From Acidimicrobiia bacterium (lineage in GTDB: Bacteria > Actinomycetota > Acidimicrobiia > Spongiisociales > ZC4RG35), in assembly GCA_041748855.1 (NCBI GenBank), contig JBGTCK010000051.1, positions 8,525 through 72,524 on the forward strand: DNA of 64,000 bases, written 5' to 3'. Positions within the stretch are counted from its first letter, which is position 1; each line of letters opens with the position of its first letter. This document shows, one piece after another, positions 1 to 53,900 of this stretch. Both the position numbers and the translations under genes were made by a program. A model generated the notes under the pieces. That model was not told the DNA's origin, did no database searches, and saw only the letters and a program-made list of their open reading frames with translations.

Positions 1-15
1 AGTAGCGCCCGAGGT

Positions 16-2205: not shown

Positions 2206-2258
2206 GTATCAGCAAAGATACCTGACGTAGCAGGCGGGACGGGCCAAACTACCGGCCA

Positions 2259-2933: not shown

Positions 2934-2958
2934 AGACCCCGGCTGCGACAATGGAGCC

Positions 2959-3699
2959 GTGAAACCGACCCTGATCGCAGCGACGCCGATGTTGGCGATT
3001 CTGATCTGGCTGGCCGCGATCATGCTCGACCCCGGGCCCTATCACTCGAGCTCCGTGCTCCTCACGGGACTCGGCTGGCTCCTCCTATCAACCGTTGCCA
3101 CCGTTGGGCTGGTGCTTGTGGGCGGGCGATGGGCCTTGCGCACACTCATAGTCGTGCTGGGGTCGACCCTCTTGGTGGGAACCGTTATTCCCCTCTCGCC
3201 CTGGAGCATGGCGGGCCTGGGAGCTACGGCGCTGGGTCTCATCCTGCTGCTGTCACCCCGTCAGCACCGACTCGTCAGAAAGCTCCCGTCGGCCGGTGGC
3301 CCGCCCGCCCGTTCGGTGCTCGTCACCCTCGCCGCACTGGGACTCCCCCTCGCCCTCGGCCTGATTCCCGCCGATGCCAACTCGTGGGTGCTCGCGATGG
3401 CGGCTAGCGGGCCCCTGGCCGCGATTCTCTACAGCCGGACAATCCCCGGCGGACTCGCCGCCATGCGCTTCGGGTTGATCGCTGCCTCGCTCGCCCTTGC
3501 CGCATTCATGCCTCTCCCCCACGCCATAGTCGCCGTGTTGGTGTCTGCGGCCATCACCGCAACCGCATGGTCGTCCGATGTCGCCGTAGCCTTCCGGCCG
3601 CTCATCGAGAAAGGCACCAGTTATGCCATCCCACCTGAGCTCACACCAAAGGAGATCCTCGACGGCGCTGGCATCGACGAGAGGGGCCAGGCTCGGTGA
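2959..3699 (+). CDS. polytopic membrane protein, function unknown
   Basis: 246-aa ORF (GTG start) that is almost entirely hydrophobic Leu/Ala/Gly-rich helices. Coding strand inferred from gene context. Confidence 0.5.
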   Translation: MKPTLIAATPMLAILIWLAAIMLDPGPYHSSSVLLTGLGWLLLSTVATVGLVLVGGRWALRTLIVVLGSTLLVGTVIPLSPWSMAGLGATALGLILLLSPRQHRLVRKLPSAGGPPARSVLVTLAALGLPLALGLIPADANSWVLAMAASGPLAAILYSRTIPGGLAAMRFGLIAASLALAAFMPLPHAIVAVLVSAAITATAWSSDVAVAFRPLIEKGTSYAIPPELTPKEILDGAGIDERGQAR

Positions 3700-3980
3700 G
3701 ACGAACCCCGAACCCGTGGATTGTCATCCCATCGCTGGCTGTCGGCCTGCTCGCTGGGCTCCTGGGTTGGTTCGTGACTGATTTGAGCTGCACGACATCG
3801 GACCCGGTCGGAGCGGTGACACACTGCTACGGCTGGGCGGCGGCGATGGCGGCAGGGGCATTCCTCGTGGTCACAGTAGGGATGGCACTGGTGCTGGTGC
3901 TCGTCTACCGCAGCCTTGGCGAGTGGCAAGAGGCTCGGACCAAGAACGAAGATCCTTCCGGCCCGGGTTGTGAGGTGTAG
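3696..3980 (+). CDS. small membrane protein, function unknown
   Basis: 94-aa ORF overlapping the upstream stop by 4 nt, with two predicted TM helices. Confidence 0.4.
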   Translation: MRRTPNPWIVIPSLAVGLLAGLLGWFVTDLSCTTSDPVGAVTHCYGWAAAMAAGAFLVVTVGMALVLVLVYRSLGEWQEARTKNEDPSGPGCEV

Positions 3981-3995
3981 GGGTTCCGGGTCTGC

Positions 3996-4241
3996 TCAGG
4001 CGTTGAGCTTGGTGTGGACCAGGTCGACTGCCTGGCCGACAGTCATGATCGACTCCGCTTCCTCATCGGGGATTTTCACCCCGAACTCGTCCTCGAGTGC
4101 CATCAGTAGCTCAACAACCCCGAGGCTGTCGACATCGAGGTCTTCTTCGAAGTGGGCATCATCGTTGATCTTCTCGGCGTCCAGACCTAACTCGGACACG
4201 AGGACACCGGTCAACTTCTCCGATACTTCGTTTCTTTCCAT
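3996..4241 (-). CDS. acpP: acyl carrier protein
   Basis: 81 aa with the phosphopantetheine attachment motif LDVDSLGVVELLMALEDEFG. Lies downstream of fabD-fabH-fabG. Confidence 0.9.
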   Translation of the reverse strand: MERNEVSEKLTGVLVSELGLDAEKINDDAHFEEDLDVDSLGVVELLMALEDEFGVKIPDEEAESIMTVGQAVDLVHTKLNA

Positions 4242-4276
4242 TTCTCGTTTCTCCTATCTATGAGTTGGGGAAGAAC

Positions 4277-5023
4277 TTACAGGGTGATCCCGCCGTCTAC
4301 CGCCAAAACCTGGCCTGTTATGTAGCTGCTTGCATCAGATGCAAGAAATCCGACTGCCTCTGCGACCTCCTCAGGTTGGCCGAAGCGACCCAGTGCAACG
4401 GCGGCAGATGCCGCTTCCTTCACGCTGTCGCCAAGTGCGTCGGTCATGTCGGTCTCGATGTATCCGGGAGCAACGACATTCGACGTGATGCCCCGGGACC
4501 CAACCTCCTTGGCGATCGACTTGGCGAAAGCAATCATCCCCGCCTTGGATGCCGCGTAGTTCGCCTGGCCGGCGTTGCCTGAAATCCCAGCAACCGAAGC
4601 TATCGAGATGATGCGGCCCCATCTTGACTTGAGCATTCCCCGGAGAGACGCCTTTGTGCAGAGAAATGCCGAGCGGAGATTGGTCTGGATCACAGAGTCG
4701 AAGTCTTCGGCGCTCATCCGGAGCAACAGATTGTCCTTGGTGATGCCAGCGTTGTTGACGAGGACATCGACTGCGCCGAGGTCGGTCGCGACCATGTCGA
4801 ACAAGGCGTCGACCTGATCTGGATCAGAAACATCGGCCTGAGCCGACATCGCCCGACCTCCCGCCGACTCGATCTGTGCCACCACGTCGGCGGCGGCGGA
4901 CGCATTCGCCGAGTAGTTGACGACGACCGCATGGCCGTCGGCGGCGAGTCGAATGGCGATCGCCCTGCCTATCCCCCTCGAGCCGCCAGTTACCAGGGCG
5001 ACCCGGGCATCGCCGCCGGTCAA
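4277..5023 (-). CDS. fabG: 3-oxoacyl-ACP reductase (SDR)
   Basis: 248 aa with the [12 protein letters not shown] cofactor motif and the catalytic YAASKAG (YxxxK), in a fab operon context. Confidence 0.85.
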
Positions 5024-6105
5024 GCCAACTTCTCCGGGACCCCGAAGAAGTCGAAGTTCGACTGGAGGATCTCAAGGGTGGTGCGATCGGCCGGGGGCAG
5101 TTCGGCGTCGCTTTCCTGGAGTGGCTCGACCCGGGCACCCCAGCGTACGATTGCCGAGCCCCAGGTGAGCCCGCCGCCGAATGCGGTGAAGGCAACGATG
5201 GAGCCGGGCGCGATCTGTCCCTGCTCCAGCGCCTCGGTGAGAGCAACCGGAATGGTCGCGGCCGAAGTGTTGCCGTAGGAGTGGATGTTGACGAAGACCT
5301 TGGCGGTGTCGACACCGAGCCGCCGCGCAGTGGCGTCGATGATCCTGACATTTGCCTGGTGCGGGATGAGGAGGTCGACATCCTCCAATCCGAGGCCCGA
5401 CTTCTCCAACGCTTGCAGCGAACTCTCCGCCATCTTGGTGACCGCCCGCCGGAATACCTCCTGGCCATCCATCCGAATTGCGCACTGGTCCGGCGGTCGC
5501 GGCGCCCAGTCGCCCTGGGTCCCATCTGCTGGAACCTCGAGAAACCTGCCTGCCGAGCCGTCGATGCCCAACTCCGAGCCGAGCACTCCTACGCCCTCTT
5601 CGCATGGCTCGAGGACCACAGCACCAGCGCCATCGCCGAAGAGGACACAAGTCGTGCGGTCGGTGAAATTCATCAAATGGTGGAGCTTCTCGGTGCCCAC
5701 CAAGAGGACGATCTTGTTGGTACCGCCCCGAATCATGTTGGCCCCGGTCACCAGCCCGTAGACGAATCCAGAGCAAGCCGCATTGAGGTCCATGGCTGCT
5801 GCGTTCACGGCGCCGATCTTCTCTTGGACCCGGGAAGCCGTCGAGGGAATGATCGAGTCTCCGGAGCATGTGGCCACAAGGAGGAGATCGACGTCCTGAA
5901 CCGACTTGCCGGCGGCAGCCAGGGCGCGCAAACAGGCAACAGCTGCCAGATCGGAGGCCTCGACATGGGAGATCCGTCGCTCTTTGATGCCGGTACGGGT
6001 GGTTATCCAGTCGTCGGAAGTGTCGACGATCTGTTCCAGGTCGTGGTTGGAGAGGACATTTGGGGGCATGCACTTGCCCCAGCCGGTTATCTCAGCATTC
6101 ATCAT
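5020..6105 (-). CDS. fabH: beta-ketoacyl-ACP synthase III
   Basis: 361 aa with the active-site Cys in LNAACSGF, plus HQANVRI and YGNTSAAT motifs. The C-terminal tail of about 35 aa is longer than in typical FabH. Confidence 0.85.
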
Positions 6106-7043
6106 TGGTGATCCATCGTACTCAGTGACTCAACCGCTGAGTCGATGTCATCCAGCGATGAGACGGTAAACACATTTGCTTCAGGAATCGTCCGTTTCGC
6201 CAGCCCTGCTGTCACGTCCCCGGGTCCGATGTGGACGAAAGTCCCGATTCCGGATGCGGCCATATTCCGGAGCGACTCCTCGAAGCGGACGGGTGAAGTG
6301 ACCTGTTCGACCAGTTTCGCCCCGATCGAACCTGACTCGTGTGGACGTGCCGACACGTTGGAGATCACTTCGAATTCGGGCTCGGCGAAGCTGACATCGG
6401 CGGTCGCAGTCGCCAGTTCATCTGCCGCCTGTGACATGAACGAAGAGTGGAACGCCCCGGCGACGTTGAGGGTGATGACCCGCCTCACCCCGAGGTCCTT
6501 GCCATGTTCCTCGAGCCACTCGAGATCGGCGGCACTGCCGGCGACAACCACCTGGCCCGGAGCGTTCGAGTTGGCAAGCTGCAGCCTGCCCCCGCGTCCC
6601 TGGTTTTCCCTGACGACCTTTTCTGCGAGATCTACATCGGCGCCGATCAGCGCGGCCATGCCCGAGGGCTCGAGGTCAGCGGCGTTGGCCATGGTTTTCC
6701 CCCTGCCGGCGACCAAGCTCAGGGCCTGCTCGAAGCTCAGCGCTCCCGCAGCGGTCAGGGCGGTGTATTCGCCCAGGGAGTGTCCGGCGGCGGCGGCGGG
6801 AATCTTGCGCACCGCGTCCCGAAACGACAGCCACAGGGCGTAGGAGACGGCAAAGAGGGCAGGTTGGGCATGCTCGGTGCGGGTCAACTCGTCAGCAGGC
6901 CCTTCGAGACACAACGTACGCAGCGACCAGCCCAAGATCGAGTCGGCAATGTCACCCAAAAGCTCTGCGTGGGCTTCGAAGCTGTCTGCCCCCATGCCGA
7001 CCGTCTGGCTGCCCTGGCCGGGAAAGAGAATCGCGTAAGTCAC
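6102..7043 (-). CDS. fabD: malonyl-CoA:ACP transacylase
   Basis: 313 aa with an FPGQGSQ N-terminus and the GHSLGEYTAL active site. Confidence 0.9.
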   Translation of the reverse strand: MTYAILFPGQGSQTVGMGADSFEAHAELLGDIADSILGWSLRTLCLEGPADELTRTEHAQPALFAVSYALWLSFRDAVRKIPAAAAGHSLGEYTALTAAGALSFEQALSLVAGRGKTMANAADLEPSGMAALIGADVDLAEKVVRENQGRGGRLQLANSNAPGQVVVAGSAADLEWLEEHGKDLGVRRVITLNVAGAFHSSFMSQAADELATATADVSFAEPEFEVISNVSARPHESGSIGAKLVEQVTSPVRFEESLRNMAASGIGTFVHIGPGDVTAGLAKRTIPEANVFTVSSLDDIDSAVESLSTMDHQ

Positions 7044-7074
7044 TGTGGGTTCGACCTCGCCGGCCCGTCTTCGG

Positions 7075-8100
7075 TTACGAAAGGGCAGTCAGCAGACGAT
7101 CGACATCGTCGCGGTCGACGTCGCGGTGGGTGACGAGTCTCCAGCCACCGAGAATGGGCGGGTTCGCCCGCACCCCCGCACTGTCCAATCTGTCTTTGAT
7201 CTCGCTCCACGGGATCCCGATTGCCTCGATGTCGACCCGGACCATGTTGGTCTCCACATCCATTACGTCCACCGACCCGGGAAATCGCTCTGCGAGACCG
7301 GCGGCAAGGTAATCGGCTAGATCATGGTCTTCTGCCATCCGCTCTCTCCCGGCAAGTGCGACTCGGGCGGCAGCTGCGATCACCCCGGCCTGGCGCATGC
7401 CCCCGCCCAGCCTCTTCCGCAGGTAGCGGATCTCAGCTATCGAATCCCGCGGTCCGCAGACGATCGAGCCGACAGGTGCCCCCAGTCCCTTGGAGAAGCA
7501 GAACTGGATGGTGTCGGCATGTTTCGACCAGGTCGCCGCGTCGACCCCGGTGGCGGCAACCGCATTGAAGATGCGTGCGCCGTCGATATGGATCTTGAGC
7601 CCTCTCGCTGCCGCGGTTGCCGAGGTCTTTTCGAAGAGCTCATACGGGATCACCCGGCCGCCGGAGAGGTTGTGCGTGTTCTCCCAGACCATTAGGCCGA
7701 TTCGGGGGAAGAACCCCACCGCGTCCATTGCCCGGTCGACATCTTCGGGCATTATCTGGCCATTCGCATTGGAGACTGTCCGAAAGCCGACGCCGGAGAG
7801 GGCCTGGGGGGCGCCGCCCTCGATGCTCCTCACGTGGCTGGCCTCGTGCGCGAGCACCTCCTCACCGGGGTTGGTGTGGAACATGATCGCCAGCTGGTTG
7901 CCCATTGTGCCCGTCGGGACGTAGATGGCAGCTTCCTTACCTGTCACCTCTGCCGATTCCTCCTCGAGGAGGTTCACCGTGGGATCGTCGTGATAGACAT
8001 CGTCACCCAACGGGGCGTTGGCCATTGCCTCCATCATTGCCGGCGTGGGACGGGTGACCGTGTCGGATCTGAAGTCGGCGTTGCCGTCGCTAAAAGCCAT
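7075..8100 (-). CDS. ltaE: low-specificity L-threonine aldolase
   Basis: 341 aa. FRSDTVTRPTPAMMEAMANAPLGDDVYHDDPTV is typical of the beta-eliminating lyase/threonine aldolase family. Confidence 0.8.
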   Translation of the reverse strand: MAFSDGNADFRSDTVTRPTPAMMEAMANAPLGDDVYHDDPTVNLLEEESAEVTGKEAAIYVPTGTMGNQLAIMFHTNPGEEVLAHEASHVRSIEGGAPQALSGVGFRTVSNANGQIMPEDVDRAMDAVGFFPRIGLMVWENTHNLSGGRVIPYELFEKTSATAAARGLKIHIDGARIFNAVAATGVDAATWSKHADTIQFCFSKGLGAPVGSIVCGPRDSIAEIRYLRKRLGGGMRQAGVIAAAARVALAGRERMAEDHDLADYLAAGLAERFPGSVDVMDVETNMVRVDIEAIGIPWSEIKDRLDSAGVRANPPILGGWRLVTHRDVDRDDVDRLLTALS

Positions 8101-8136
8101 GGGGTTGAGGGTAGTGCAGCGCCTAGTCCCGGCTTG

Positions 8137-9309
8137 TCACAGGCGGCCGAGTGCCTTCCCGATCCGCTGCGCCGCCTCGGTGATCCGATCCGCATCTTCG
8201 ACCAGGGCAAAGCGGACATGGCCCTCACCGGCCGTGCCGAAGCCCAGCCCGGGGCTGACCGCCACCCCGGCCTTCTCCAGAAGGTAGATGGAGAAGTCGA
8301 GCGATCCCATGTCTGCGTACGCATCCGGAATCGTCGCCCAGACGAACATGGTCGCCTCGGGCGGGGGGACGGACCAGCCGATTTCATCGAGTCCACCGAT
8401 CAGGGCATCCCGCCGTTGCCGGTAGATTTCGTTGACCTCGTCGACGTACCCGTCTCCCTCATTCAGTGCTGCCGCCGCCGCGACCTGGATTGGCTGGAAG
8501 GTCCCGTAGTCGAGATAGCTCTTCAGCTTGGCCAGTGCGGCGACAATCTCAGAGTTGCCCGCCATGAAACCAACCCGCCAACCAGCCATCGAGTGGCCTT
8601 TGGTCAGCGAGTACAGCTCGACGCCAACCTCTATGGCCCCGTCGACTTCGAGCAGCGACGGCGCACGGTATCCGCCAAAGCCGATGTCGGCGTAGGCGAA
8701 GTCATGGACGACAACAACCTCCTGCTCCCTGGCGAATGCCACCAGGCGCTCGAAAAACCCGATATCGACAGTCTTGGTCGTCGGGTTGTGGGGGAAGCTG
8801 ACGATGATTACCCGTGGCCGGGGCCATGAGTTCTTAAACATCCGGTCGACTACCTCGAAGTAGTCCTCCTCCGAGCCGATCGGTGCGATACGGACCTCCG
8901 CACCGGCGATCACTGGGGCGAATATGTGGATCGGGTACGACGGGTCCGGGACGATGGCCGCGTCGCCGGGCTGGAGAAGCGTCCACATCAGATGAGAGAG
9001 CCCTTCCTTGGCGCCGATGGTGGCGATCACCTCGGTCTCGGGGTCGAGAGTGACCCCGAAACGACGATGGTACCGAGCGGCCAGGGCATTCCTGAGATCG
9101 TCGATCCCCCGCGATGCCGAGTACCGGTGGTTGCCCGGATTCAGGGCCTCTGCGCGCAGGGTTTCGACTGCGATCTCAGGGGAAGCGATATCAGGGTTGC
9201 CAAATCCGAGGTCGATCACATCGACGCCGGATTCCCTGACTTCCAGCTTGCGACGGTTTACCTCTGCAAATGCATAGGGAGGCAGCGATCCGATCCGTCT
9301 GAAGTCCAT
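8137..9309 (-). CDS. class I/II PLP-dependent aminotransferase (AlaC/DapL-like)
   Basis: 390 aa with an NPxNPTG-like FPHNPTT motif and the PLP-lysine motif SLTKGHSMAGWRVG. Confidence 0.8.
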   Translation of the reverse strand: MDFRRIGSLPPYAFAEVNRRKLEVRESGVDVIDLGFGNPDIASPEIAVETLRAEALNPGNHRYSASRGIDDLRNALAARYHRRFGVTLDPETEVIATIGAKEGLSHLMWTLLQPGDAAIVPDPSYPIHIFAPVIAGAEVRIAPIGSEEDYFEVVDRMFKNSWPRPRVIIVSFPHNPTTKTVDIGFFERLVAFAREQEVVVVHDFAYADIGFGGYRAPSLLEVDGAIEVGVELYSLTKGHSMAGWRVGFMAGNSEIVAALAKLKSYLDYGTFQPIQVAAAAALNEGDGYVDEVNEIYRQRRDALIGGLDEIGWSVPPPEATMFVWATIPDAYADMGSLDFSIYLLEKAGVAVSPGLGFGTAGEGHVRFALVEDADRITEAAQRIGKALGRL

Positions 9310-9367
9310 TGACTCTTCAATTTAGCTCCAGAGCGGGCAAATCCCGGTAGCCCGGGTCAACGGGCGC

Positions 9368-9799
9368 CTAACCATTGAGACGGTCGAAGATGCCCCTGAT
9401 CTTGGTCGGGACGAGTCCCCTCGCCAGTGAGAGGACGTCCTCGATCAGCTTGAGCAGGTCGACCGGGCCGTCCCAGTGCTCCTCGACGATCTCCGGGCCG
9501 GAACGGTTGATCAGCCCGTCGATTGCCAGCAGCAGAAAGAGGATGTCGTCGGCCCATCCGATGACAGGGATTATGTCCGGGATGAGGTCTATCGGGCTCG
9601 CGACGTAGGCCGCCGCAGCACCCAAAGCAATTTTCGAGCGACGCGGCACCCTCGGGTCGGCAAGCAGCCTCCCCACCAGCTTGACGATATTGGGAACGAT
9701 CAGAACCGTATCCTGGATCAGCTTTCGCCCCTGGACGGAGTTTCCTCCGGGCGGTACCACCTCGTCGGGACGAACCCGCTCCTGATTGTTGTAGGTCAT
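9368..9799 (-). CDS. DUF1232 (YkvA-like) membrane protein
   Basis: 143 aa with the characteristic SPIDLIPDIIPVIGWADD motif. Last gene of a 4-gene ATGA-coupled operon. Confidence 0.7.
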   Translation of the reverse strand: MTYNNQERVRPDEVVPPGGNSVQGRKLIQDTVLIVPNIVKLVGRLLADPRVPRRSKIALGAAAAYVASPIDLIPDIIPVIGWADDILFLLLAIDGLINRSGPEIVEEHWDGPVDLLKLIEDVLSLARGLVPTKIRGIFDRLNG

Positions 9800-9987
9800 T
9801 CGACTTCTATCCGTTCGGTCCCATTAGCTGACTGCTCTCCGTTCTCATTGTCACCCATTTTCCCCAATTCGTCTATCACGGCTTCGACCGCCTTTACCCC
9901 TTCGATGGCTGCCTGAATCATATGAATCAATGCCCGTTTCCCGGCACGGCCCAGAGTGGCCACCACCTCATCACGATCAGGCATCAA
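9796..9987 (-). CDS. small helical acidic protein, function unknown
   Basis: 63-aa ORF sharing 4-nt overlaps with both neighbours (translational coupling). No recognisable domain. Confidence 0.45.
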   Translation of the reverse strand: MMPDRDEVVATLGRAGKRALIHMIQAAIEGVKAVEAVIDELGKMGDNENGEQSANGTERIEVE

Positions 9988-11159
9988 GCACTATCCGGCT
10001 CGTTGAAGGAGACGGAGAGAACGCCGTTATCCAGCTTGGCCCGCGTCACCTCGCGCCGATGCAAAGCGTCGGGCAGCACAAATGAGCGCCGATAGGGCCC
10101 GAGCTGTACGAACAGCTCGTTTCCCTTGCGGTAAACGTCGAGGTCGGCCTTTTCCGCAAAGGGCACGTCCAGCTCCATGGTCACACCAGCCGAGCCCTCG
10201 ACAATCCTGAAGGGACTTGTGGCATGGAAGTCGGCGATCGGATCAGATTCTCCGTAGAGTTCCTGTGCCAACCGACGAAGACGGTCCAGGCCGATCATCT
10301 CATCGTCGAACAACCGCACCCGGAGTCGGGGCACATCGGCAAAGGCCTCGTCGACCACGTCGAGATGCCCCTTCTGGATAGATCTCCAGCGATCGAAATA
10401 GGGGTCGGTGACGTCGTCGGGGAGCACACGGTTCACCACCACACCGTCCACCCCGTAGCCGAAAAGGCCCAGGTAGCTATAGGTGCGCCGGGCCTCATCG
10501 ATCACCATTTTCTCGGGGTTGACCACCAGGCGCGCCGAGGTGATCTCGGGCGAGCTCATCAGCTCCTTGACCCCCTCGATCGAGTCGAAAACCGATTGGG
10601 CAGCGCCAAAGACCTCGTCGCGGGGCAGTGGCAGATCGGTCATCCTGGAGAGAAGCGGGCGGGCGGCCTTCATCAGCTTCCGTTCGGTTGGCATCACCCT
10701 TTCGAAATACCAGGAGAGAACTTCGGGCAGGGAGAGGAGGCGGAGCGTTTCTGCGGTAGGGGCGCAGTCGACCACCACCACGTCGTAGTCCCCGGACCGA
10801 GCGTGCTCGTTGACCTCGATCAGAGCAAACAGCTCGTCCATCCCGGGAAATATCAAGAACTCCTCGGACTCGATGCCGCCCGCCCCACCCCAGTCGAGCA
10901 CATCCATGAGCTGGCGCCTGATCGATCCCCAGTACTTATCGAGCTGACGCTGGGTATCGATCTGCTGTCCCTGGAGATTGGGGGCGATATCGGTGGGATC
11001 GCTTCCCAGACCCACCATAAGGGCGTCGGATAAGGAGTGCGCGGGATCGGTGGAGGTGACCATGGTCCGATAGCCGGCGTCGGCAGCGGCCAGGGCGGTG
11101 GCCGCAGCCACCGTTGTCTTGCCCACGCCCCCCTTTCCGGTGACGAGGATGATCCTCAT
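9984..11159 (-). CDS. ArsA/Get3-family P-loop ATPase with C-terminal HSP20-like domain
   Basis: 391 aa with P-loop GKGGVGKTT and ArsA/Get3 signature STDPAHSLSDAL. The C-terminal beta-sandwich-like segment (VTMELDVPFAEKADLDVYRKGNELFV...LDNGVLSVSF) resembles alpha-crystallin/ArsA_HSP20. Confidence 0.85.
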   Translation of the reverse strand: MRIILVTGKGGVGKTTVAAATALAAADAGYRTMVTSTDPAHSLSDALMVGLGSDPTDIAPNLQGQQIDTQRQLDKYWGSIRRQLMDVLDWGGAGGIESEEFLIFPGMDELFALIEVNEHARSGDYDVVVVDCAPTAETLRLLSLPEVLSWYFERVMPTERKLMKAARPLLSRMTDLPLPRDEVFGAAQSVFDSIEGVKELMSSPEITSARLVVNPEKMVIDEARRTYSYLGLFGYGVDGVVVNRVLPDDVTDPYFDRWRSIQKGHLDVVDEAFADVPRLRVRLFDDEMIGLDRLRRLAQELYGESDPIADFHATSPFRIVEGSAGVTMELDVPFAEKADLDVYRKGNELFVQLGPYRRSFVLPDALHRREVTRAKLDNGVLSVSFNEPDSA

Positions 11160-11596
11160 TCAGCCTGCTCGGAGACCCTCTTACGCAGACCCTTGAGGGC
11201 CGTTGTCACGATCTGGCGCTCTGCCTGGCTGCGAATGAACCCGGGGATCTTGAAGTTGGGCTCGACGCTCAGGGCATAGACCACTTCGACGCCTTGCTCG
11301 GTTTCGTTGAACGTGTACGAGCCCTCGAGCATTTTCACGTCTCCGCTCTCTTCGGCCGTCCAACTCAGGGAATGCGGCCGGGCGTGTGTGTAGCGCAGGA
11401 CGTACTCGATCTCCTTGATGAAGCCGTCAATGACGAATCGGGCACGGGTTACGTTCCCCTTGTCGTCGGTTTCCAGAACCTCGACCTCCTTGATCCCTGT
11501 CGCCCACTCCGGGTAACCGGCGATGTCGGCCACGGTGTCGTAAAGGTCGGTCGCAGCTGCGTCTATTTCCAGCGTTTGAAAGGTGCCTTCACTCAT
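11156..11596 (-). CDS. SRPBCC (polyketide cyclase/dehydrase-like) family protein
   Basis: 146 aa with the pattern typical of the SRPBCC fold (DLYDTVADIAGYPEW...). First gene of the ArsA operon. Confidence 0.75.
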   Translation of the reverse strand: MSEGTFQTLEIDAAATDLYDTVADIAGYPEWATGIKEVEVLETDDKGNVTRARFVIDGFIKEIEYVLRYTHARPHSLSWTAEESGDVKMLEGSYTFNETEQGVEVVYALSVEPNFKIPGFIRSQAERQIVTTALKGLRKRVSEQAE

Positions 11597-11638: not shown

Positions 11639-11800
11639 AGTGGCCCGTCGCTCAAATGCTGGCGGCGTTTCTCCGGCCCTCGAGGCCCCTGGCTGCGTCG
11701 AGGTGCTCGCCGCACTCCCGGGCTGCGACTGCGCGCTTCTCCTGCCAGTTGACCTCGATGACTCGGGGCTACGCTCGCCCTATTTGACCGACAGACCACT
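11639..11800 (-). mobile_element. MITE-like element, copy 3 (inverted relative to copies 1 and 2)
   Basis: 162 bp, alignable end to end by eye with 53737..53900 and 47289..47515 in reverse complement. Terminal inverted repeats are AGTGGTCTGTCGGTCAAATA and AGTGGCCCGTCGCTCAAATG (each end read inward, 5' to 3'). Strand label is an arbitrary polarity. Confidence 0.6.
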
Positions 11801-12556
11801 CAGATCAAGCCGATAGGCACGGCCGGTCGCCCGGAAGTAGCCGACGTTGACACACGACGTCGCTCCGATCCGCCACCGTGATGCCTGGGGCTGGTGAACA
11901 TCGCCGTAGAGATGCAATCCGGGTCTGACACTGCGGATGTAGTCGAGGATTGGTTGTGAGCTGCGCTCTTTGCGCCCGGTGATCACATCTGTCTCCAAGG
12001 GGCCGAGGGCCGGTGCGACATGGGTGCACAGCACGTCGACCTCACCAATCGAGTCGAGGGTCTCCCGCATCTCGTCGTCAGAGATCTCGCCCGGAGCCTG
12101 CATCGGGGTCGCCACTCCCCCGCCAGCGAACCCGAAGCTGACCCCCTCGATTTCGACCCTTCTTCCGTGCACGTACTCGAATCCAGGAGGGAGAGATTCG
12201 GCAAGGCTGGCGGGTCTGTCCACGTTCCCGTGGATCACATAGCCTGACGCATTCCCCAACGCCGCCGACAGCAGTCCATATTGATCAGCAATAGCTCTCT
12301 CGATGCCCCGGCGCGCCTCGTCCGGGTCACCCGGGCGGGTTTGCCACATCGTCCGCATCCTTTCGAAGTCGCCTTCGCCCCGGGCGCGCGCTGCGTCCCG
12401 GGCGAACTCGATGCCAAGTGCGGCGGCTACCGCCCCTTCACCGGTCCTGTAGTCGGTGAGGTTGGCTAGGTCGCCGAGTATGAGCAGCGTCTCGCCAGTG
12501 GAGGCGACAGAGGCCAGGGCGTCAAAGGCACCGTGGACATCGGAGACGACGAGCAT
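11780..12556 (-). CDS. metallophosphoesterase
   Basis: Start placed at the internal ATG giving MLVVSDVHGAFDAL (the DxH motif at the N-terminus), which overlaps the upstream stop (TGATG). GDLANL and GNVD motifs are present. The last 6 codons and the stop lie inside MITE copy 3. Confidence 0.8.
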   Translation of the reverse strand: MLVVSDVHGAFDALASVASTGETLLILGDLANLTDYRTGEGAVAAALGIEFARDAARARGEGDFERMRTMWQTRPGDPDEARRGIERAIADQYGLLSAALGNASGYVIHGNVDRPASLAESLPPGFEYVHGRRVEIEGVSFGFAGGGVATPMQAPGEISDDEMRETLDSIGEVDVLCTHVAPALGPLETDVITGRKERSSQPILDYIRSVRPGLHLYGDVHQPQASRWRIGATSCVNVGYFRATGRAYRLDLSGLSVK

Positions 12557-41043: not shown

Positions 41044-43383
41044 ATGCAGGAATCGAGCGAGCTACAACGCGATCTGGGATTCTGGAGTGCGCTCACTATC
41101 GGCGCCGGCACGATGATCGGTGCCGGGATCTTCCTTCTCGCCGGCAGGGCGATCGAAGCCGCCGGGCCGGGTGCGTCAGTGTCCTACATCGTCGCTGGCG
41201 TGGTCTGCCTCCTGACCGCCGCGTCGGCAGCGGAACTTGCTACCGGGATGCCGACCTCGGGCGGTGACTACTACTTCGTCTCGCGTTCGCTGGGCGCTGC
41301 AATGGGTGCCATCTCCGGTGTGGGGATCTGGCTCTCCCTGACGGTGGCGATAGCGTTCTATCTCGTCGGCACGGGCGAGTTCCTGGCCCAGGTCAGTCCG
41401 GTACCCGAGGTCGCCGGCGCTCTCGCCGGGGCGGTGTTGCTTTTGGTCCTGAACGTCGTGGGGGCCAAGTTCTCCGGATCTGTCCAGGTCGCAATCGTTC
41501 TGGCCCTCATGGTCATTCTCGGCATATTCGTAGTCGGGGGCATTCTGCAGGCCGAGGTAGCCAACCTCAGCCCATTTCTCCCCGAGGGCGGAGGAGCGGT
41601 GCTGTCGACGACGGCACTCGTATTCGTCTCATTCCTCGGGTTCGTCAAGATTGCCGCAGTTGCCGAAGAGATCAAGGAGCCGGAGAAGAACCTGCCCCGA
41701 GCCCTGATCGGGTCGGTGGCGCTGGTCACCGTGCTCTACGTGCTGATCGTTCTGGTGGTCGCCGGTGTGTTCACGCAGGCGACGATCCGTGACATACCCG
41801 ACCCACTCACTCGGACCGCCCGCCTGGCCTTTGGTGGCGCCGGCGCGACCGGAATCATCGTCGCCGGGTTGTTTGCCACACTGTCGTCTGCCAATGCCTC
41901 GATCCTCGCCGCCTCGCGGATCAATCTCGCCATGTCCCGCGATGGTCTCTTCCCCGAGAAGTTGGCCAAGATCAACGCGCGTTTCATCACGCCGCTCCGC
42001 GCGATCGTGCTGACGTCGGCGCTCGCCGGAGTCCTGATCGTGGCACTTCCCAACATCGAGGAGCTCGCCAAGATCGCCTCGTCGTTGCAGCTGTACTCCT
42101 ATGCGGCGATCAACGTTGGGGCCGTGGCCCTTCGGGCTTCGGACCCACCGTGGTACATGCCTACCTTCCGCGTTCCGCTGTCGCCGCTGCCCCAGACTCT
42201 TGGTGCTCTCGGTTGTCTGGCGATCATCGGCTTCTCTGGGACCACTGCGCAATTGGCAGTCGCCGGGCTGATCGTCGTCAGCCTTCTCTGGTACTTCGTC
42301 CGGAGGAAAGGCGTCGACTTCGAGTCCGCTGTAGGACTGCTACGTCTGCGATGGAGCCAGCTGGGTCTCCGGGCCCTGTTCTCACCGCCAACCAGGGCTG
42401 AGGTCCAGGCTGAGGCCCCTGTTGCACCGATGGAACGAATCGCGGGCATAGAGGACCCGCGTCGCGTAGCGGTGGCAATGGCGAATCCGAACACCGAGCG
42501 ACCTCTGCTCCGGCTTGGGCGGCTGATCGCCACCGGCTCAAAGGCGCCAGGGGAGATCTTCGCACTTCGGTTGATCAAGGTGCCACGTCAAACCCCGCTC
42601 AGGGAGCTCGGTACCCGCACCGGTCTTATCACCAAGGCCGGCGCCTCCCTTGCAGAAGCGATCGCTGATCTGCCCGCTGTGCCGGAGCCCTCCAAACGGC
42701 CTGTCGCCCAGACGACGGCGGAGATCATCATCGAGCCGGCTCACGACATTGGCGTCGGTTTGGTCGAAGAGTCCGTTCGTCACCGGGCAGATCTTCTGGT
42801 ACTCGGCTGGCACGGTGGGTTCTCTCTCGGACGAATCTCCGATTCGCCCGTACGCCGTGTTGTGGGAGGGCTACCAGCAGACTTCGCCGTGCTCAACGAC
42901 CGCGGGTTGGCCGATCTCGATCGTATTCTCCTGCCGTGGGGTGGTGGGCCGCATGCACGTCTGGGACTCGAACTGGCGCTGCGCATCGCCGGCGCCACGG
43001 GCGGCAAGGTCGACCTCCTGCGGGCCGTGCGCGAGTCCGTCAACCCGGAACAGGAGGCCGCCACGGTCCGCAAGGCGATCGAGCCACTGGCCAGCCAGGT
43101 GGACACGCCGATCGAAGTGCTTGTCAGGCCGTCCGAGGATGTTGTCAGCACGATCGTCGGAACGGCCAGAGAGGGAGACTACGACCTCCTGATCATCGGA
43201 GCTTCAGGCGAGTCCGGTCTGCGGACGGTTCTGTTCGGGACGATCCCCGATATCGTGGCCGACCGCGCACCCTGCTCGGTACTCCTGGTGCGTCGCTACG
43301 TTCCGGGGCACTGGGCCTACCGCACCTCCCAGGGCTTCAGGCGCTTGCGGGAACGAGTGGGGCTGTCCTCGTCTGCCGAGTGA
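41044..43383 (+). CDS. APC-family amino acid permease fused to tandem universal stress protein (USP) domains
   Basis: ATG start at 41044 (the track ORF starts at a TTG at 41002). About 440 aa form a 12-TM permease (WSALTIGAGTMIGAGIFLLAG), followed by two USP-like domains (ADLLVLGWHG..., YDLLIIGASGESGL...). Confidence 0.8.
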   Translation: MQESSELQRDLGFWSALTIGAGTMIGAGIFLLAGRAIEAAGPGASVSYIVAGVVCLLTAASAAELATGMPTSGGDYYFVSRSLGAAMGAISGVGIWLSLTVAIAFYLVGTGEFLAQVSPVPEVAGALAGAVLLLVLNVVGAKFSGSVQVAIVLALMVILGIFVVGGILQAEVANLSPFLPEGGGAVLSTTALVFVSFLGFVKIAAVAEEIKEPEKNLPRALIGSVALVTVLYVLIVLVVAGVFTQATIRDIPDPLTRTARLAFGGAGATGIIVAGLFATLSSANASILAASRINLAMSRDGLFPEKLAKINARFITPLRAIVLTSALAGVLIVALPNIEELAKIASSLQLYSYAAINVGAVALRASDPPWYMPTFRVPLSPLPQTLGALGCLAIIGFSGTTAQLAVAGLIVVSLLWYFVRRKGVDFESAVGLLRLRWSQLGLRALFSPPTRAEVQAEAPVAPMERIAGIEDPRRVAVAMANPNTERPLLRLGRLIATGSKAPGEIFALRLIKVPRQTPLRELGTRTGLITKAGASLAEAIADLPAVPEPSKRPVAQTTAEIIIEPAHDIGVGLVEESVRHRADLLVLGWHGGFSLGRISDSPVRRVVGGLPADFAVLNDRGLADLDRILLPWGGGPHARLGLELALRIAGATGGKVDLLRAVRESVNPEQEAATVRKAIEPLASQVDTPIEVLVRPSEDVVSTIVGTAREGDYDLLIIGASGESGLRTVLFGTIPDIVADRAPCSVLLVRRYVPGHWAYRTSQGFRRLRERVGLSSSAE

Positions 43384-43384
43384 G

Positions 43385-43453
43385 CCCGGCAACGCGCAGA
43401 AGACCCCTTTCGGGGTCCTCTGCACACAGCGAGTCGATCTGTAAGCCGGATTC
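43385..43453 (-). repeat. displaced copy of the rnpB 3' end plus terminator (direct repeat A)
   Basis: 69 nt, 66/69 identical to 46851..46919. It contains GAATCCGGCTTACAGATCGACTC (the last ~23 nt of RNase P RNA) and the GNRA-capped terminator hairpin. It starts 2 nt after the permease stop codon. Confidence 0.8.
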
Positions 43454-43762
43454 GGTCTGGGTCAACCGAGTCGAAGACTTCGGACGACGGCCGTGGACCA
43501 TTGTCAATTCAGTCCGAGCACGCCGATTCGCCGACCAAACGGATCCGAGAGAATTCGCAATCAGAGAGATCAACGGTCGAGATCGAGGGGCTATACGTCT
43601 CACATTCACGAGATTGGCCTAGGCGCCGTATCCGAGCAACGGGCTCATCCTCGTCAGGGTCGGGTCAATCGTCCGGTCCAAGCCGAGCAGTCCATCCCCG
43701 GTGGCCCAAGAGCCTAATAAGGGGCAGCCGGAACCGAGATGGTCTCGCAAAGAGGTTGGTCT

Positions 43763-43899
43763 TTATGTGATGGGGCCGGCGATGAACCCTGAGACGAGTT
43801 TTGCCACTTGGTCCGGGTGGCCTAGCCAGGGACCATGCTCGGCGTCGAGCATCTCAAGCTGAGCCTCTGGAATGGCAGAAGCTGCCTCCTGAGCTGCGT
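43763..43899 (-). pseudogene. alpha/beta hydrolase C-terminal remnant
   Basis: Translates as DAAQEAASAIPEAQLEMLDAEHGPWLGHPDQVAKLVSGFIAGPIT*, a typical C-terminus of the fold including the catalytic-His region. No upstream body remains in frame. Confidence 0.45.
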
Positions 43900-43942
43900 C
43901 ACATCCCCACTTCGACAAACCACCTGGTTGTACGACTTCCTG

Positions 43943-44185
43943 TCAGCCCGCGTTGAGGGCGGCCTCCTCGATGGAGGCCGCCCATGCTCTCGAAGTTTCT
44001 CCTAAGCATCGTGTCGGTCACGGGACCGGTCAGTCGGCCGATGGGGCCTCCCCTTGCCACATACCCGTAGTCGAATGTGATCGCTGTCCCGTCCCCGTCG
44101 GGCTCGAGCGTGAGCCTGGACTCTGCTTGCTTGAACGGGACGAGAGCGGATGGTTGATTCGCGGTGATGTGCACGCGAACTTGTC
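43943..44185 (-). pseudogene. SRPBCC family gene remnant (N-terminally truncated, frameshifted near the 3' end)
   Basis: VRVHITANQPSALVPFKQAESRLTLEPDGDGTAITFDYGYVARGGPIGRLTGPV...RRNFESMGG resembles the C-terminal half of the neighbouring SRPBCC proteins. A plausible end (SIEEAALNAG*) is in a different frame. Confidence 0.4.
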
Positions 44186-44269
44186 GTTGTGCGCTCTGTT
44201 GCGCCAATGGATCAGCCGAACCAGCACGATGGGTGCGTAAGATATTTCCAGGCACTCGACGGAGGAAAG

Positions 44270-44692
44270 GTGAAACTCGAAGCATCGACCGTCATTGATC
44301 GACCCGTTGCGACCGTATGGGAGTTTTACGCCGTCAACCACGTTCAAAACCATCCGCGTTGGGATTCGACCATCGAACTCGAAGCCATCTCCGACGAACC
44401 CATCCGCGTTGGCACCGTCATCAAGAGACGCACTAACCGCGGCGGAAGGATCACCGACGGAACGATGGAAGTGACCGAGTTCGAACCCGACAGGACAATG
44501 CGAGTCAGAATCCACGACCGGCCAATGACGATCGACGGTTGGGCTCTGCTCGAAGCGACTTCGGACAATGCGACCAAACTGACCATCGGCGGGGACATTC
44601 CGAACTTGGACCCTTCGATGGAGGATGTGATCAGGCAGTTGATGCAGCGAAGCGCCAAGAACATCAAGTCGCTCATCGAATCGGAAACCTGA
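44270..44692 (+). CDS. SRPBCC family protein
   Basis: Start placed at a GTG preceded by GGAGGAAAGG. VKLEASTVIDRPVATVWEFYAV... is a typical SRPBCC N-terminus. The product is about 140 aa. Confidence 0.7.
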   Translation: MKLEASTVIDRPVATVWEFYAVNHVQNHPRWDSTIELEAISDEPIRVGTVIKRRTNRGGRITDGTMEVTEFEPDRTMRVRIHDRPMTIDGWALLEATSDNATKLTIGGDIPNLDPSMEDVIRQLMQRSAKNIKSLIESET

Positions 44693-45144
44693 TCATAGAA
44701 GGATCCCCGTCCAGGGAAACGGGCGCCTCATGGCATAGCAGTCTCGCATTGCTGCCCGAGCGCAGAGGTACCCCGGTCGGTAGTGGTTGGTCTCAGATAT
44801 GGCGGACCGCACCAGATTGATTTTTTGTGGGCGCGGTAGGTTCACTCGGGCCGTTGCGTATGGTTAGGAGTGTGACTTGGCAGGATGGCTGTTGATTGGC
44901 GGATCCCTGCTCGCCATCGCCGTGGTGTCGTTTACCTGTGGCACCGTTCTGGCATGCGGCTGCAGTGCGAATCTCGAGGTGACTTCGCGACAGCAACGTT
45001 TATGATCGCCTCCGGTGCCTTGTCTACATCGAAAATCGAGGTGTCATTCGTCGGATTAGCCGCCCTCACCGGTGCACTGACGAAGAGGCATCTCAGTCGG
45101 TCAGACCTGGCGCCGCCTCTGATACCCCATTCGCCGAGGGGGGG

Positions 45145-46233
45145 ATGATGGGTGGACCAGGTGCGTCGCGAGAGGTGGTTCGCTTCTGTCGCGCCCATGG
45201 CGGTGTGAGGATCGCGTACGCGGTCCATGGCGACGGACCGCCGCTGATCCTCGGCAAGAATTGGATCAGCCACCTCCAGTACGATTGGGATGACCCGGTA
45301 CTCGGGCACCTCCTTGGTGCTCTGGGCCGTCTGGCGACCGTCGTCCGGTATGACGAACGCGGCTACGGGTTGTCCGACTGGGAGCCGGAGGATTTCTCGC
45401 TGGAGGCGAGACTCGGCGACCTGGAGACAGTGGCGGCAGCAGCTGGCTTCGATCGGTACTCCGTCATGGCCATGGGGCAGGCAGGTCAGGTCGCGATCAG
45501 TCACGCCGCCCAACAACCTGAGCGTGTAACCCGCCTGATTCTCAACGGCACGTTCGCCGGAGTGACCGACGAGTACCGAGCGAGCTTCGAGGAGTATTTC
45601 GCGACGCTCGTACAGATCGTTCGCTTCGGATGGACGCTACCTGATTCGCGCTTCCGGCGCGTCTTCTCCGAGAGCATGGTTCCCGAAGCGACGGAGAGCC
45701 AGAAACGCTGGATCGACGAGCTCCAGCCGCTCGTCACCAGCAAGGACACGGCAATCACCGCTGCCCAGGCGCGCCAGAAGGTGGACGTCATCGACCTCCT
45801 CGCCGATGTGGCTGTGCCCACCCTCGTGTTACACGCGCGTGGCAACCGGATGACGCCCTTCGAGCAGGGTCGGCTCATGGCTGCTCACATCCCCGATGCA
45901 CGTTTGGTCGCGCTGGAGAGTGAGAACATGTCGCCCCTTGCCAACGAGTCGGCCTGGCCGGTCTGGCTGGAGGAGGTCACGGGGTTCCTGGAGCCTGACC
46001 GTGCGTCAATCCCCACCCGGTCAGCCCCATCCGAGCTGGTAGAACAGCTCACAGAAAGGGAAGTCGAACTCCTGCACCTGGTGGCTGACGGTCTCACCAA
46101 CGACGAGATAGCCGAGCAGCTAGTGCTCAGCGCCCGGACCGTCGAACGCCACCTCTCCAACATCTACCGCAAGCTGGGGGTGTCCGGCAGAGCTGCCAGG
46201 GCAGCCGCGGTCGCCCACATCCTGAGGAACTGA
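45145..46233 (+). CDS. alpha/beta hydrolase domain fused to a LuxR-type HTH transcriptional regulator
   Basis: 362 aa. The N-terminal region has the hydrolase fold and the C-terminus is a LuxR/GerE HTH ([44 protein letters not shown]). Confidence 0.75.
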
Positions 46234-46351
46234 TCGGTACGTGTTCGGCGCCACTGTGTGGTGAGGCCAGTTCTGACGTTGCGTGCTCACACCGATGCGG
46301 CGATAGAGCAGCGCCCGTAACTTGGTTGTTATATCAAGCGAGGAGCAAGCG

Positions 46352-46777
46352 ATGATCGACGAAACACACACAGTGGCCATCTCCAGGCCGGTTAAAGAGG
46401 TGTTCGACTTCGTAGCGGATCCGGCGAACGAGCCCGACTGGCATTTCGATGTGAAGGAGGTTCTCCGGCCCAAGAACGGCCCTTACGAGCCCGGCGAGAC
46501 CTTCCAGTGGGTCGTCAAGTTCGGAGGGTCCAAGACCTACTCCGTGGAGATCACGGCCCTCGAGCCAAACCGGTTTATCGAGATCACCACACGCGAAGGC
46601 GCAGTCCTGCCCGTTCTCACCCACACTTTCCAACCCGATGGAGACGGGACCCGCTACACGCGGCGGGTGAGGTTCGAAACCAGGGGGTTGTTGCGGGTCA
46701 TGGCCCCGCTAATGGTGCGCATAAACAATCCCAATACGAGGTGGGCGGAAAACCTGAAGGAAGTTCTCGAGGGCTGA
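46352..46777 (+). CDS. SRPBCC family protein
   Basis: ATG start preceded by GAGGAG. MIDETHTVAISRPVKEVFDFVADPANEPDWH is a typical SRPBCC N-terminus. The product is 141 aa. Confidence 0.7.
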   Translation: MIDETHTVAISRPVKEVFDFVADPANEPDWHFDVKEVLRPKNGPYEPGETFQWVVKFGGSKTYSVEITALEPNRFIEITTREGAVLPVLTHTFQPDGDGTRYTRRVRFETRGLLRVMAPLMVRINNPNTRWAENLKEVLEG

Positions 46778-46850
46778 CAGTCTGGTCCTGGCCTCGGGTA
46801 AAAGGATCGATGGCCTCAACCATTGCCTTGTTCTGGTTGCGGATCTGAAA

Positions 46851-46919
46851 CCCGGCAACGCGCAGAAGACCCCTCTCGGGGTCCTCTGCACACTGTGAGT
46901 CGATCTGTAAGCCGGATTC
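46851..46919 (-). repeat. rnpB 3' end plus terminator (direct repeat B, part of the functional gene)
   Basis: 69 nt, 66/69 identical to 43385..43453. Confidence 0.8.
46865..46886 (-). terminator. hairpin immediately 3' of rnpB
   Basis: Minus-strand RNA forms GAGGACCCC-GAGA-GGGGUCUUC: 9 bp including one G-U pair, with a GNRA loop. The same stem would carry a C-A mismatch on the plus-strand RNA. Confidence 0.5.
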
Positions 46920-47267
46920 TGTTACCTGTCGCGCCCGGCAACGCCGGGCCGACACGACGACCATCCATCTAGGCGAACTGTCTCCAGTCCGCTCGAGCGG
47001 CCTACCCGGGATATTCAACGGGCCGTTGATCCCTGCTTGGCCTTGCTCCCGGTGGGGTTTACAAGCTGTCCCGGTCGCCCGGGGCACTGGTGGTCTCTTA
47101 CACCACCTTTTCACCCTTGCCTGTGTCCGAAGACCATCGGCGGTTCATTTTCTGCTGCACTTTCCGTCGGGTTGCCCCGCCTGGGAGTTACCCAGCACCG
47201 TGCCCTGTGGAGTCCGGACTTTCCTCGCCTCCGCTGCGCGGAGCCGCGGCCGTCCAATCGACTCGCT
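46895..47267 (-). ncRNA. rnpB: RNase P RNA, bacterial type A
   Basis: The minus strand reads GCGAGUCGAU...GGAGGCGAGGAAAGUCCGGACUCCACAGGGCA...GGGUAAC...AGUGCAGCAGAAA...CCGCCGAUGG...CAAGGGUGAAAAGGUGGUGUAAGAGACCACC...GGGAGCAAGGCCAAGCAGGG...CCCGGGUAGGCCGCUCGAGC...CUAGAUGGAUGG...ACAGAAUCCGGCUUACAGAUCGACUC. Universally conserved P4/J regions are present. Ends are approximate to within a few nt. Confidence 0.9.
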
Positions 47268-47288: not shown

Positions 47289-47515
47289 AGTGGTGGGTCG
47301 GTCGAAAAGGTTGTGTGTGTTTCCGAGTTCTCGGCGTCATCTGGCAAGGAGAAAAGCGCAGCCGCACCCGGACCGTTCGGCGAGCATTTTGGACGCAGCC
47401 AGGGGCAACCCGATGAAATCGGGTTGCCTGGAGTTTGATGCTCAAACTCCCACGAATGGCATCCGCGGCGACGAGGGCCGGAGAGACTCCATCATTACTC
47501 GGGCGACGCACCACT
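47289..47515 (+). mobile_element. MITE-like element, copy 1 (with a 63-nt nested insertion)
   Basis: 227 bp. It aligns with 53737..53900 over its whole length apart from the 63-nt insert at 47406..47468. Ends are AGTGGTGGGTCGGTCGAAAA and TACTCGGGCGACGCACCACT (inverted repeats). Confidence 0.6.
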
Positions 47516-53722: not shown

Positions 53723-53736
53723 GCGAGAAGCAGGCT

Positions 53737-53900
53737 AGTGGTGTGTCGCTCGAATAGGTTGCGCGTGTCTCCGAGGCATCGGCGTCATCTGGCAAGGAGA
53801 AAAGCACAGTCGCAGCCGGGGAGCTGCGGCGAGCATTTTCGACGCAGCCAGGGGCGACGAGGGCCGGAGAGACGCCATCAATATTCGAGCGGCGCACCAC
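53737..53900 (+). mobile_element. MITE-like element, copy 2 (reference copy)
   Basis: 164 bp. The terminal inverted repeats GTGGTGTGTCGCTCGAATA (left) and GTGGTGCGCCGCTCGAATA (reverse complement of the right end) match at 17/19 positions. It fills most of the Nif3-DUF164 spacer and ends 14 nt from the DUF164 start codon. Confidence 0.65.

Follow-up and report, generated by a model that had tools for sequence, protein, structure and literature searches.

How did the 3′ end of rnpB, the gene for RNase P RNA, come to stand twice on one bacterial contig, in the same orientation and with accessory genes between the two copies? The question is raised by a stretch of 64,000 nucleotides (nt) from an Acidimicrobiia bacterium (GenBank assembly GCA_041748855.1, contig JBGTCK010000051.1, positions 8,525 to 72,524 of the forward strand). 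This whole 64-kb stretch is called the window here, and coordinates are positions in it unless another locus is named. A first interpretation, the sequence-only reading, took the 3.4 kb between the copies for the scar of an integrative element that had recombined within the 3′ end of rnpB and had supplied the gene with a surrogate 3′ end. The core of that proposal is now strongly supported by empty sites in relatives, by the variety of inserts found at the same place, and by integrase-bearing elements located at rnpB in other bacteria. With a probability of roughly 0.7, these 3.4 kb are what remains, in decayed form and without an integrase, of an element that was inserted site-specifically at the rnpB 3′ end.

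The Repeat at the 3′ End of rnpB

The gene and the two copies of its 3′ end, designated A and B, lie in the window as follows.

46892-47265, minus strand: rnpB, full-length bacterial type A RNase P RNA (RNaseP_bact_a, RF00010; cmscan 298.2 bits, E 1.4e-96, model positions 1-367)
46851-46922, minus strand: copy B, the working rnpB 3′ end (46892-46922) and hairpin T1 (46857-46888, GAGA loop), from cmscan, repeat search and folding
43385-43456, minus strand: copy A, a distal non-functional rnpB 3′ fragment (~31 nt) and hairpin T1 (GAAA loop), an attachment-site-like (att-like) repeat at the far island end, from repeat search and folding

Copies A and B form a direct repeat of 72 nt with 68 identical positions (94%); their spacing is 3,466 nt, and genes lie in between. 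The sequence-only reading had described a repeat of 69 bp with 66/69 identity, made of the rnpB 3′ end and a GNRA-capped hairpin, and repeat search, cmscan and folding all agree with that description. Scanning of the window with the 69-mer gave exactly two sites, with 0 and 3 mismatches, and dinucleotide-preserving shuffles gave a match in 0 of 100 cases. No third copy was found across the 64 kb when both copies were used as blastn-short queries. The repeat is real and is no chance match.

Copy B is made up of the last 28-31 nt of rnpB, a 3-nt spacer, the 14-bp hairpin T1 and 6 more nucleotides; it comprises the end of the gene and 41 nt of the DNA downstream of it. In both copies, T1 is a 14-bp stem of the form GCAGAGGACCCC-GNRA-GGGGUCUUCUGC, with folding z-scores of -4.8 and -4.2. 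The pairing in helix P1 had been read correctly from the sequence: the rnpB 5′ end, GCGAGUCGAU, pairs 10/10 with AUCGACUCGC of copy A, and the strand in copy B, AUCGACUCAC, has one C-A mismatch, which is non-canonical according to cmscan. As judged from the sequence and from cmscan, rnpB is not truncated beside the island and has one non-canonical terminal P1 pair. On its other side, copy A begins 2 nt past the stop codon of an open reading frame (ORF) for a permease fused to a universal stress protein (USP) domain, which ends at 43383, and here too the coordinates agree with the earlier description. Copy A departs from rnpB directly after GGATTC(T/G)GT, where the next base is C.

A dispersed terminator, or a repeat of the repetitive extragenic palindromic (REP) type or the miniature inverted-repeat transposable element (MITE) type, was considered as the source of such copies and rejected. 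The window contains two copies, all other retrieved copies are located at rnpB, and none were found in IMG/VR. Copies of a terminator beside many unrelated genes, which the sequence-only reading had named as one contrary outcome, did not turn up. A scan of Joint Genome Institute (JGI) metagenomes with the 23-mer returned two genuine rnpB genes and nothing else. The T1 pattern had no match in 150 loci; by eye, T1 was recognized in four loci that were retrieved later (L152, L155, L159 and L160), in every case at rnpB.

Empty and Occupied Sites in Syntenic Relatives

Syntenic relatives were retrieved by anchoring on the globin gene, which lies on the far side of rnpB. The common backbone consists of the ccm genes, thioredoxin, hydrolase, DUF4440 and AIG2_2 on the left and of rnpB, an ORF of 122-125 amino acids (aa), globin and SRAP on the right. 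A second type of hairpin, T2, which is distinct from T1, was encountered in several of these loci. Between AIG2_2 and rnpB, or to the left of rnpB at the non-syntenic loci, the following arrangements were found.

L152, L153 and L154 (~86.5% identical): MIP gene, 135 nt, T1, rnpB; one copy, no island, no permease
L159 (~74%): MIP gene, beta-lactamase fragment, T1, rnpB; one copy, no island
L156 (~83%): degenerate T2 hairpin and rnpB fragment, 0.8 kb with a STAS gene, T2, rnpB
L155 (flanks 78-82%, permease 92%): permease-USP gene, ~107 nt, T1 and rnpB fragment (3761-3855), 5.1-kb island, T2, rnpB
L160: T1 and rnpB; left side different, non-syntenic
L081, L082 and L161: T2 and rnpB; left side different, non-syntenic

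Single-copy sites free of an island, for which the sequence-only reading had proposed a search, therefore exist in L152, L153, L154 and L159. In L155, the two copies have only ~31 nt in common (GCTGCGAGTCGATCTGTAAGCCGGATTCTGT), the native T1 end is displaced, and the working rnpB ends in T2. This locus is a textbook case of the attL/attR pattern expected of an element that brings its own terminator. The 5.1-kb island of L155 has a low content of guanine and cytosine (GC), is without Pfam matches, and is unrelated to the island of the window.

When eight copies were aligned, the displaced ones (copy A of the window and those of L155 and L156) were found to leave rnpB at one and the same base, after ...GGATTCTGT and before C. 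The three islands are not homologous, save for 37 nt that are common to L155 and L156 and hold a pair of YGTTGAA motifs. Such pairs, with an 11-nt spacing, stand just inside both ends of the inserts, at 3970-3987 and 8886-8903 in L155 and at 4560-4577 and 5252-5270 in L156. Four of the five forward-strand copies of YGTTGAA within 20 kb of L155 sit at the island ends. By their placement, the pairs are probably arm-type integrase-binding sites of the family of elements that carry T2. No integrase remnant was found in L152 or in L155-L160. The comparison of these loci shows that the rnpB 3′ end is an insertion hotspot, a recurrent target in the syntenic relatives.

Could the repeat have arisen locally, without any mobile element? 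Slippage, unequal crossing-over or microhomology-mediated template switching might duplicate the end of a gene, and the genes between the copies would then have arrived separately. There is a precedent: Reed and Altman reportedly described 113-bp repeats in the 3′ flank of Escherichia coli rnpB in 1983. In E. coli K-12 (NC_000913.3; L151, 1335-1757), at least three tandem 113-nt repeats over the last ~40 nt of rnpB can be recognized, each with a terminator-like hairpin, and the duplication there took place without intervening genes. As in the window, a 3′ part of rnpB is repeated together with a terminator downstream of the gene. The E. coli copies, however, follow one another in tandem and enclose no genes, whereas those of the window, two in number, are separated by 3.4 kb of DNA with accessory genes. 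A head-to-tail tandem of the E. coli type (~113 nt) was rejected for the window on the grounds of its 3,466-nt spacing and the genes in between. It also speaks for a local event that L155, right past the permease stop codon, weakly resembles the left end of the repeat. On the other side, the window has only two copies, which are not in tandem, three independent inserts have exactly the same junction inside rnpB, integrase-bearing elements use the same sublocation, and the working gene of L155 has a different terminator, which duplication cannot yield. A local duplication is, on these grounds, quite improbable.

Mis-assembly deserves the same consideration, as the source contig appears to be metagenome-derived and repeats can cause wrong joins; two contigs might have been joined into a chimera at a common repeat of ~70 nt. 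The two copies differ at four positions, and the flanking DNA on both sides of the region is collinear with L152 over 25 kb. Moreover, L155 independently has the permease followed by a displaced rnpB fragment. An artefact of this kind is hardly credible. Against both local duplication and mis-assembly stand the junction common to the three inserts, the exchange of terminators in L155 and the collinearity with L152.

One further scenario concerns a common origin of the islands of the window and L155. The ~107-nt spacer between the permease and the displaced copy of L155 was compared with the window island, and the alignment score fell inside the range of shuffled sequences. The spacer is not detectably a leftover of the window island, and the idea of a shared ancestral island is unsupported.

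Integrase-Bearing Elements at rnpB in Other Bacteria

The sequence-only reading had suggested a search for intact elements with a recombinase beside an rnpB-3′ repeat. IMG/VR was scanned with conserved rnpB 3′ motifs, and such elements were found, L101 among them. L101 (IMGVR_UViG_3300042206_000109, 1-11279) is a viral contig of 11.3 kb with high GC. Its rnpB (151 bits), which is cut by the contig end, has its 3′ terminus at position 11025, and the gene for a tyrosine integrase (PF00589 1.9e-20, with Phage_int_M and SAM_3) ends 24 nt away from it, at 11001. At a distance of 10,895 bp, directly past the stop codon of a host ORF, 29 nt of the rnpB 3′ end are repeated without a mismatch, and the two sites delimit an element of ~10.9 kb. 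Between the repeats, there are genes for a helix-turn-helix regulator, a primase/helicase, a large terminase, a portal, a scaffold and a major capsid protein, and no tail genes. By annotation, this gene set resembles that of a capsid-forming phage satellite. Repeated CTGCGGAC motifs were observed near both ends of L101.

Related arrangements were found in other contigs. L115 and L125 encode integrases with 45-64% identity to that of L101, at a distance of 46-79 nt from an rnpB 3′ end. In L121-L123, a degenerate rnpB-3′-like sequence was seen by eye downstream of related integrases; cmscan gave no RNase P match there at E <= 0.01. L132 has an integrase beside a fragment that contains only the 3′ part of rnpB and has its own terminator, which looks like the attachment site of an element (attP). 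In L141, the end of the integrase is 26 nt from a similar 3′-only fragment. L139 and L149 are two loci taken from a 38.8-kb prophage contig, and an rnpB 3′ fragment stands at the extreme end of both. Three of the rnpB-associated integrases have a mutual identity of 30-38%. The identity blocks of the actinobacterial elements L101, L132, L139/L149, L141 and L143 start at TCCGG, 7 nt inside the block of the window, which indicates that the same sublocation of rnpB is used. Exact-pattern scans of IMG/VR with the 23-mer of the window clade, the T1 hairpin and a 20-nt core gave no matches, and no attP of this clade was found.

Thermus-type contigs of IMG/VR (L092, L100, L103, L106, L110 and L113) contain, near the contig ends, fragments of the rnpB 3′ part that are 41-183 nt long and have a terminator of their own. 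In the three that were checked (L092, L100 and L106), the fragment is ~1.5-2.2 kb from a DUF2586 gene. The placement of these fragments suggests that Thermus prophages target rnpB. A second, inverted copy of the 5′ part of rnpB was noticed in L108.

Content and Composition of the Island

The island and its immediate neighbours contain the following features.

41044-43383, plus strand: amino-acid permease fused to a USP domain, 779 aa, left neighbour of copy A (Pfam AA_permease 2.7e-42, Usp 4.4e-18)
43457-44269, no strand: decayed left part of the island, with a partial SRPBCC as its only gene trace and low GC (Pfam, GC)
43899-44285, minus strand: partial SRPBCC (Polyketide_cyc2; Pfam E 7.7e-5, below the cut-off, profile positions 74-131 of 142)
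44270-44692, plus strand: SRPBCC gene 1 (Polyketide_cyc2; Pfam PF10604 3.6e-9, full length)
45145-46233, plus strand: regulator with an alpha/beta-hydrolase domain fused to a LuxR/GerE helix-turn-helix, cassette gene 1 (Pfam GerE 4e-18, Abhydrolase_1 2.3e-8)
46352-46777, plus strand: SRPBCC gene 2, cassette gene 2 (Pfam PF10604 2.7e-15)
46831-46850, no strand: short flank CTGGTTGCGGATCTGAAA directly left of copy B; the same sequence stands left of T1 in L155 (beside the displaced copy) and in L160

Pfam agrees with the sequence-only reading on the two intact SRPBCC genes and the hydrolase-LuxR regulator. The SRPBCC remnant it had proposed is reflected in the partial match listed above, which stays below the cut-off, and the proposed alpha/beta-hydrolase remnant is without Pfam support (best E 0.24). 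Stop-to-stop segments of 43457-43900 and 44693-45144 gave no Pfam match in any frame, recombinases included.

The regulator and the second SRPBCC gene form a conserved two-gene cassette that occurs in at least four genomic contexts of Acidimicrobiia (the window, L083, L084-L086 and L087). The DNA of the cassette (45056-46814) is 86-88% identical to L083-L087, which represent three other contexts, none of them beside rnpB. The cassette may encode a ligand-sensing regulator paired with a small-molecule-binding protein.

The composition of the island was compared with that of the whole window, in line with a proposal of the sequence-only reading. Its GC is 0.605, compared with a mean of 0.627, and is the lowest among all 3.4-kb segments of the 64 kb. 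The left half (43457-45055, GC 0.584) is the main source of this low value. The other part of this comparison, based on tetranucleotides, gave no significant result and is taken up below.

Origin and Polarity of the Island

The decayed-remnant reading can be set out as a series of steps. The attP of the element would mimic the terminal ~30 nt of RNase P RNA and, in this case, the hairpin behind it as well. When it recombined with the chromosomal site, this rnpB-3′ block would be duplicated: one copy would stay on the body of rnpB and keep the gene intact, and the other would be stranded at the far end of the insert beside the permease-USP gene. At a later stage, the integrase would have been lost, as would any arm-type binding sites. 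The residue would be accessory cargo, consisting of the two SRPBCC genes, the alpha/beta-hydrolase-LuxR regulator and gene fragments. From the repeat, the intact rnpB, the sites of the relatives and the elements of other bacteria, we infer that the window island arrived by the action of an integrase.

A number of observations weigh against this reading. As the sequence-only reading had already stated, the island is without an integrase: no integrase, excisionase or remnant of one was detected by Pfam in the long ORFs of 28-52 kb and the intergenic stop-to-stop segments, and tblastn of the three rnpB-associated integrases against the whole window gave only matches with E > 0.4. Arm-type sites are likewise missing, as the inner island ends have no common k-mers of at least 8 nt, no spaced repeats and no YGTTGAA pairs. 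The tetranucleotide profile of the island is no outlier, with 11% of the segments equally or more distant, and the cassette stands at ordinary chromosomal positions in its relatives (L083-L087). Among the relatives, no genome was found in which the permease abuts rnpB, the form of empty site that the sequence-only reading had anticipated. T1 is present on both copies and is also the native hairpin at the empty sites of L152 and L159; a foreign attP is not expected to match 41 nt past the gene. Finally, ~20 nt to the left of copy B match the DNA downstream of rnpB in L155 and L160, with homology beginning at 46833 for L155 and at 46831 for L160 (blastn; pairwise alignment). After a simple insertion into a native site, this flank would be expected beside the distal copy, contrary to its position at copy B.

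These data also affect the question of which copy is the original one. The sequence-only reading had regarded copy A as ancestral and copy B as derived from the element, and this is not established. Both copies derive from one outgroup consensus (L152, L160, the distal copy of L155, and L159). Compared with this consensus, copy A has 2-3 private substitutions (repeat positions 44, 70 and possibly 25), and copy B has one, which creates the C-A mismatch in P1. Since both copies go back to a single consensus and the flank of copy B (46831-46850) is common with L155 and L160, the polarity is ambiguous. The data fit either a circle that carried a genuine rnpB-downstream segment of a related donor or serial integrations followed by deletion or gene conversion. 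One scenario of the latter kind is that of the L155 spacer, for which the comparison described above was negative.

The first of these possibilities leads to a competing account, namely, a Campbell-type integration of circular DNA with a genuine rnpB-downstream segment from a related donor. Neither copy would then be a surrogate designed by an element, and the repeat would still be an rnpB attachment scar. Such a circle might have come from the aberrant excision of an rnpB-integrated element that took along the displaced 3′ fragment and host DNA, as in specialised transduction. Its entry might have come about through a RecA-dependent single crossover in the ~70-90 nt that are homologous, or through an integrase supplied in trans. 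This account explains why both copies have the native T1, as at the single-copy sites of L152 and L159, and why the flank at 46831-46850 equals rnpB-downstream DNA of L155 and L160. It also fits the identity of 41 nt beyond the gene end, by which the repeat far exceeds the blocks of L101 and L155 (29-31 nt), and an island without integrase or arm sites. The inner junction, in turn, is nucleotide-identical to those of L155 and L156, which have arm-type motifs, and no donor configuration was found. A length of 72 nt is, furthermore, short for efficient homologous recombination. Integration of such a circle is regarded as unlikely, with more in its favour than a local duplication, and the remnant of a site-specifically inserted element is preferred.

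Comparison with Known Attachment Sites

According to a textbook rule of bacterial genome evolution, elements integrate at the 3′ ends of transfer RNA (tRNA) and transfer-messenger RNA (tmRNA) genes, and island finders are built on this rule. Williams reportedly described in 2002 how islands and prophages are integrated at these 3′ ends by tyrosine integrases. A surrogate 3′ end brought by the element keeps the target gene intact. The insert of the window is similar in that it is bracketed by direct repeats of the 3′ part of a stable-RNA gene. The similarity extends to L155, in which the surrogate terminator can be seen directly and the displaced fragment stays as a relic, to the hotspot with different occupants in related genomes, and to the integrases that adjoin the RNA gene in the intact L101, L115 and L125. 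The differences are that the target is rnpB and that the 72-nt identity block of the window takes in the native terminator.

Other types of structural RNA genes have also been considered as targets. In 2025, the attB of phage phiEf11 was placed inside ffs, the gene for 4.5S RNA, as a novel non-coding-RNA attachment site (PMC12540744). In both cases, a structural RNA gene other than a tRNA gene serves as attB, and the identity block is in the 3′ part of the gene. Unlike the window island, which is only a remnant, phiEf11 is an intact and experimentally confirmed prophage, and both the gene and the host phylum are different. RNase P covariance models are already among the candidate targets of Phage_Finder 2.5 (PMC12540744). 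Fragments of tRNA genes are known as relics of past integrations (PMC9897764); copy A, as a non-functional 3′ fragment near the intact gene, likewise marks a past integration, with the difference that it is a fragment of rnpB. Island calls by TIGER/Islander need an integrase gene (PMC12424338). The window island cannot be called by either program because its integrase has been lost.

No report of rnpB as an attachment site was found in the full-text literature; this search did not cover the TIGER 2020 paper, and an earlier mention is possible. The balance leans slightly towards the view that the rnpB 3′ end is a general, undescribed class of attachment site. This class would be used by a clade of tyrosine integrases in Actinobacteria, independently by Thermus elements, and in the Acidimicrobiia clade of the window with T1/T2 terminator swaps and integrase-less cargo islands. 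The elements of the actinobacterial clade would include units of ~10 kb that have capsid, portal and terminase genes, are without tail genes, and are similar to phage satellites.

If rnpB is used in this manner, the rule would extend to a third universal structural RNA, with ffs having been added only in 2025. Mobile elements would then shape both how an essential ribozyme gene ends and how its transcription is terminated, and its terminator and P1 3′ strand could come from foreign DNA. The rnpB 3′ end would provide a new anchor for island finders, chiefly in Actinobacteria and metagenome-assembled genomes, in which tRNA-based calls miss such islands. The integrases would have a highly conserved, single-copy and essential target, which would make them attractive for site-specific genome engineering. 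As a decayed remnant, the window island is itself of modest interest; the general point is carried by the hotspot and the integrase-bearing relatives. For the genome of the window, such use of rnpB would mark 40.9-46.9 kb as flexible, horizontally exchanged DNA and not core.

The Permease Neighbour and a MITE-Like Repeat

The permease-USP gene has a history of its own. The segment 40976-43395, made up of the gene with ~70 nt before and 12 nt after it, matches L155 at 92% identity, compared with 78-82% for the surrounding DNA. The gene is missing at the rnpB locus in L152, L159 and L156. Relatives of the permease with 76-86% aa identity (L001-L003, L088 and L089) are found in unrelated contexts with no rnpB nearby. 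To judge from this distribution, the gene looks like a horizontally exchanged accessory cassette whose insertion point coincides exactly with the left edge of the T1 block. The sequence-only reading had regarded the permease gene and rnpB as former direct neighbours. This could not be established: no genome with the exact empty site was found, and the permease of L155 is ~107 nt from the displaced copy.

A second, MITE-like repeat of ~170-225 nt with the terminal inverted repeats AGTGGTG...CACCACT was observed in the window at 47289-47513, at 53735-53900 and, on the reverse strand, at 11639-11810. The same repeat is present in L155 (9354-9526) and L159 (9333-9514). In the window, L155 and L159, a copy precedes the rnpB 5′ end at a distance of 22 nt; no such copy is present at this position in L152, L156 and L081. 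Because it can be present or absent on the 5′ side of rnpB, this MITE-like repeat must either carry or displace the rnpB promoter.

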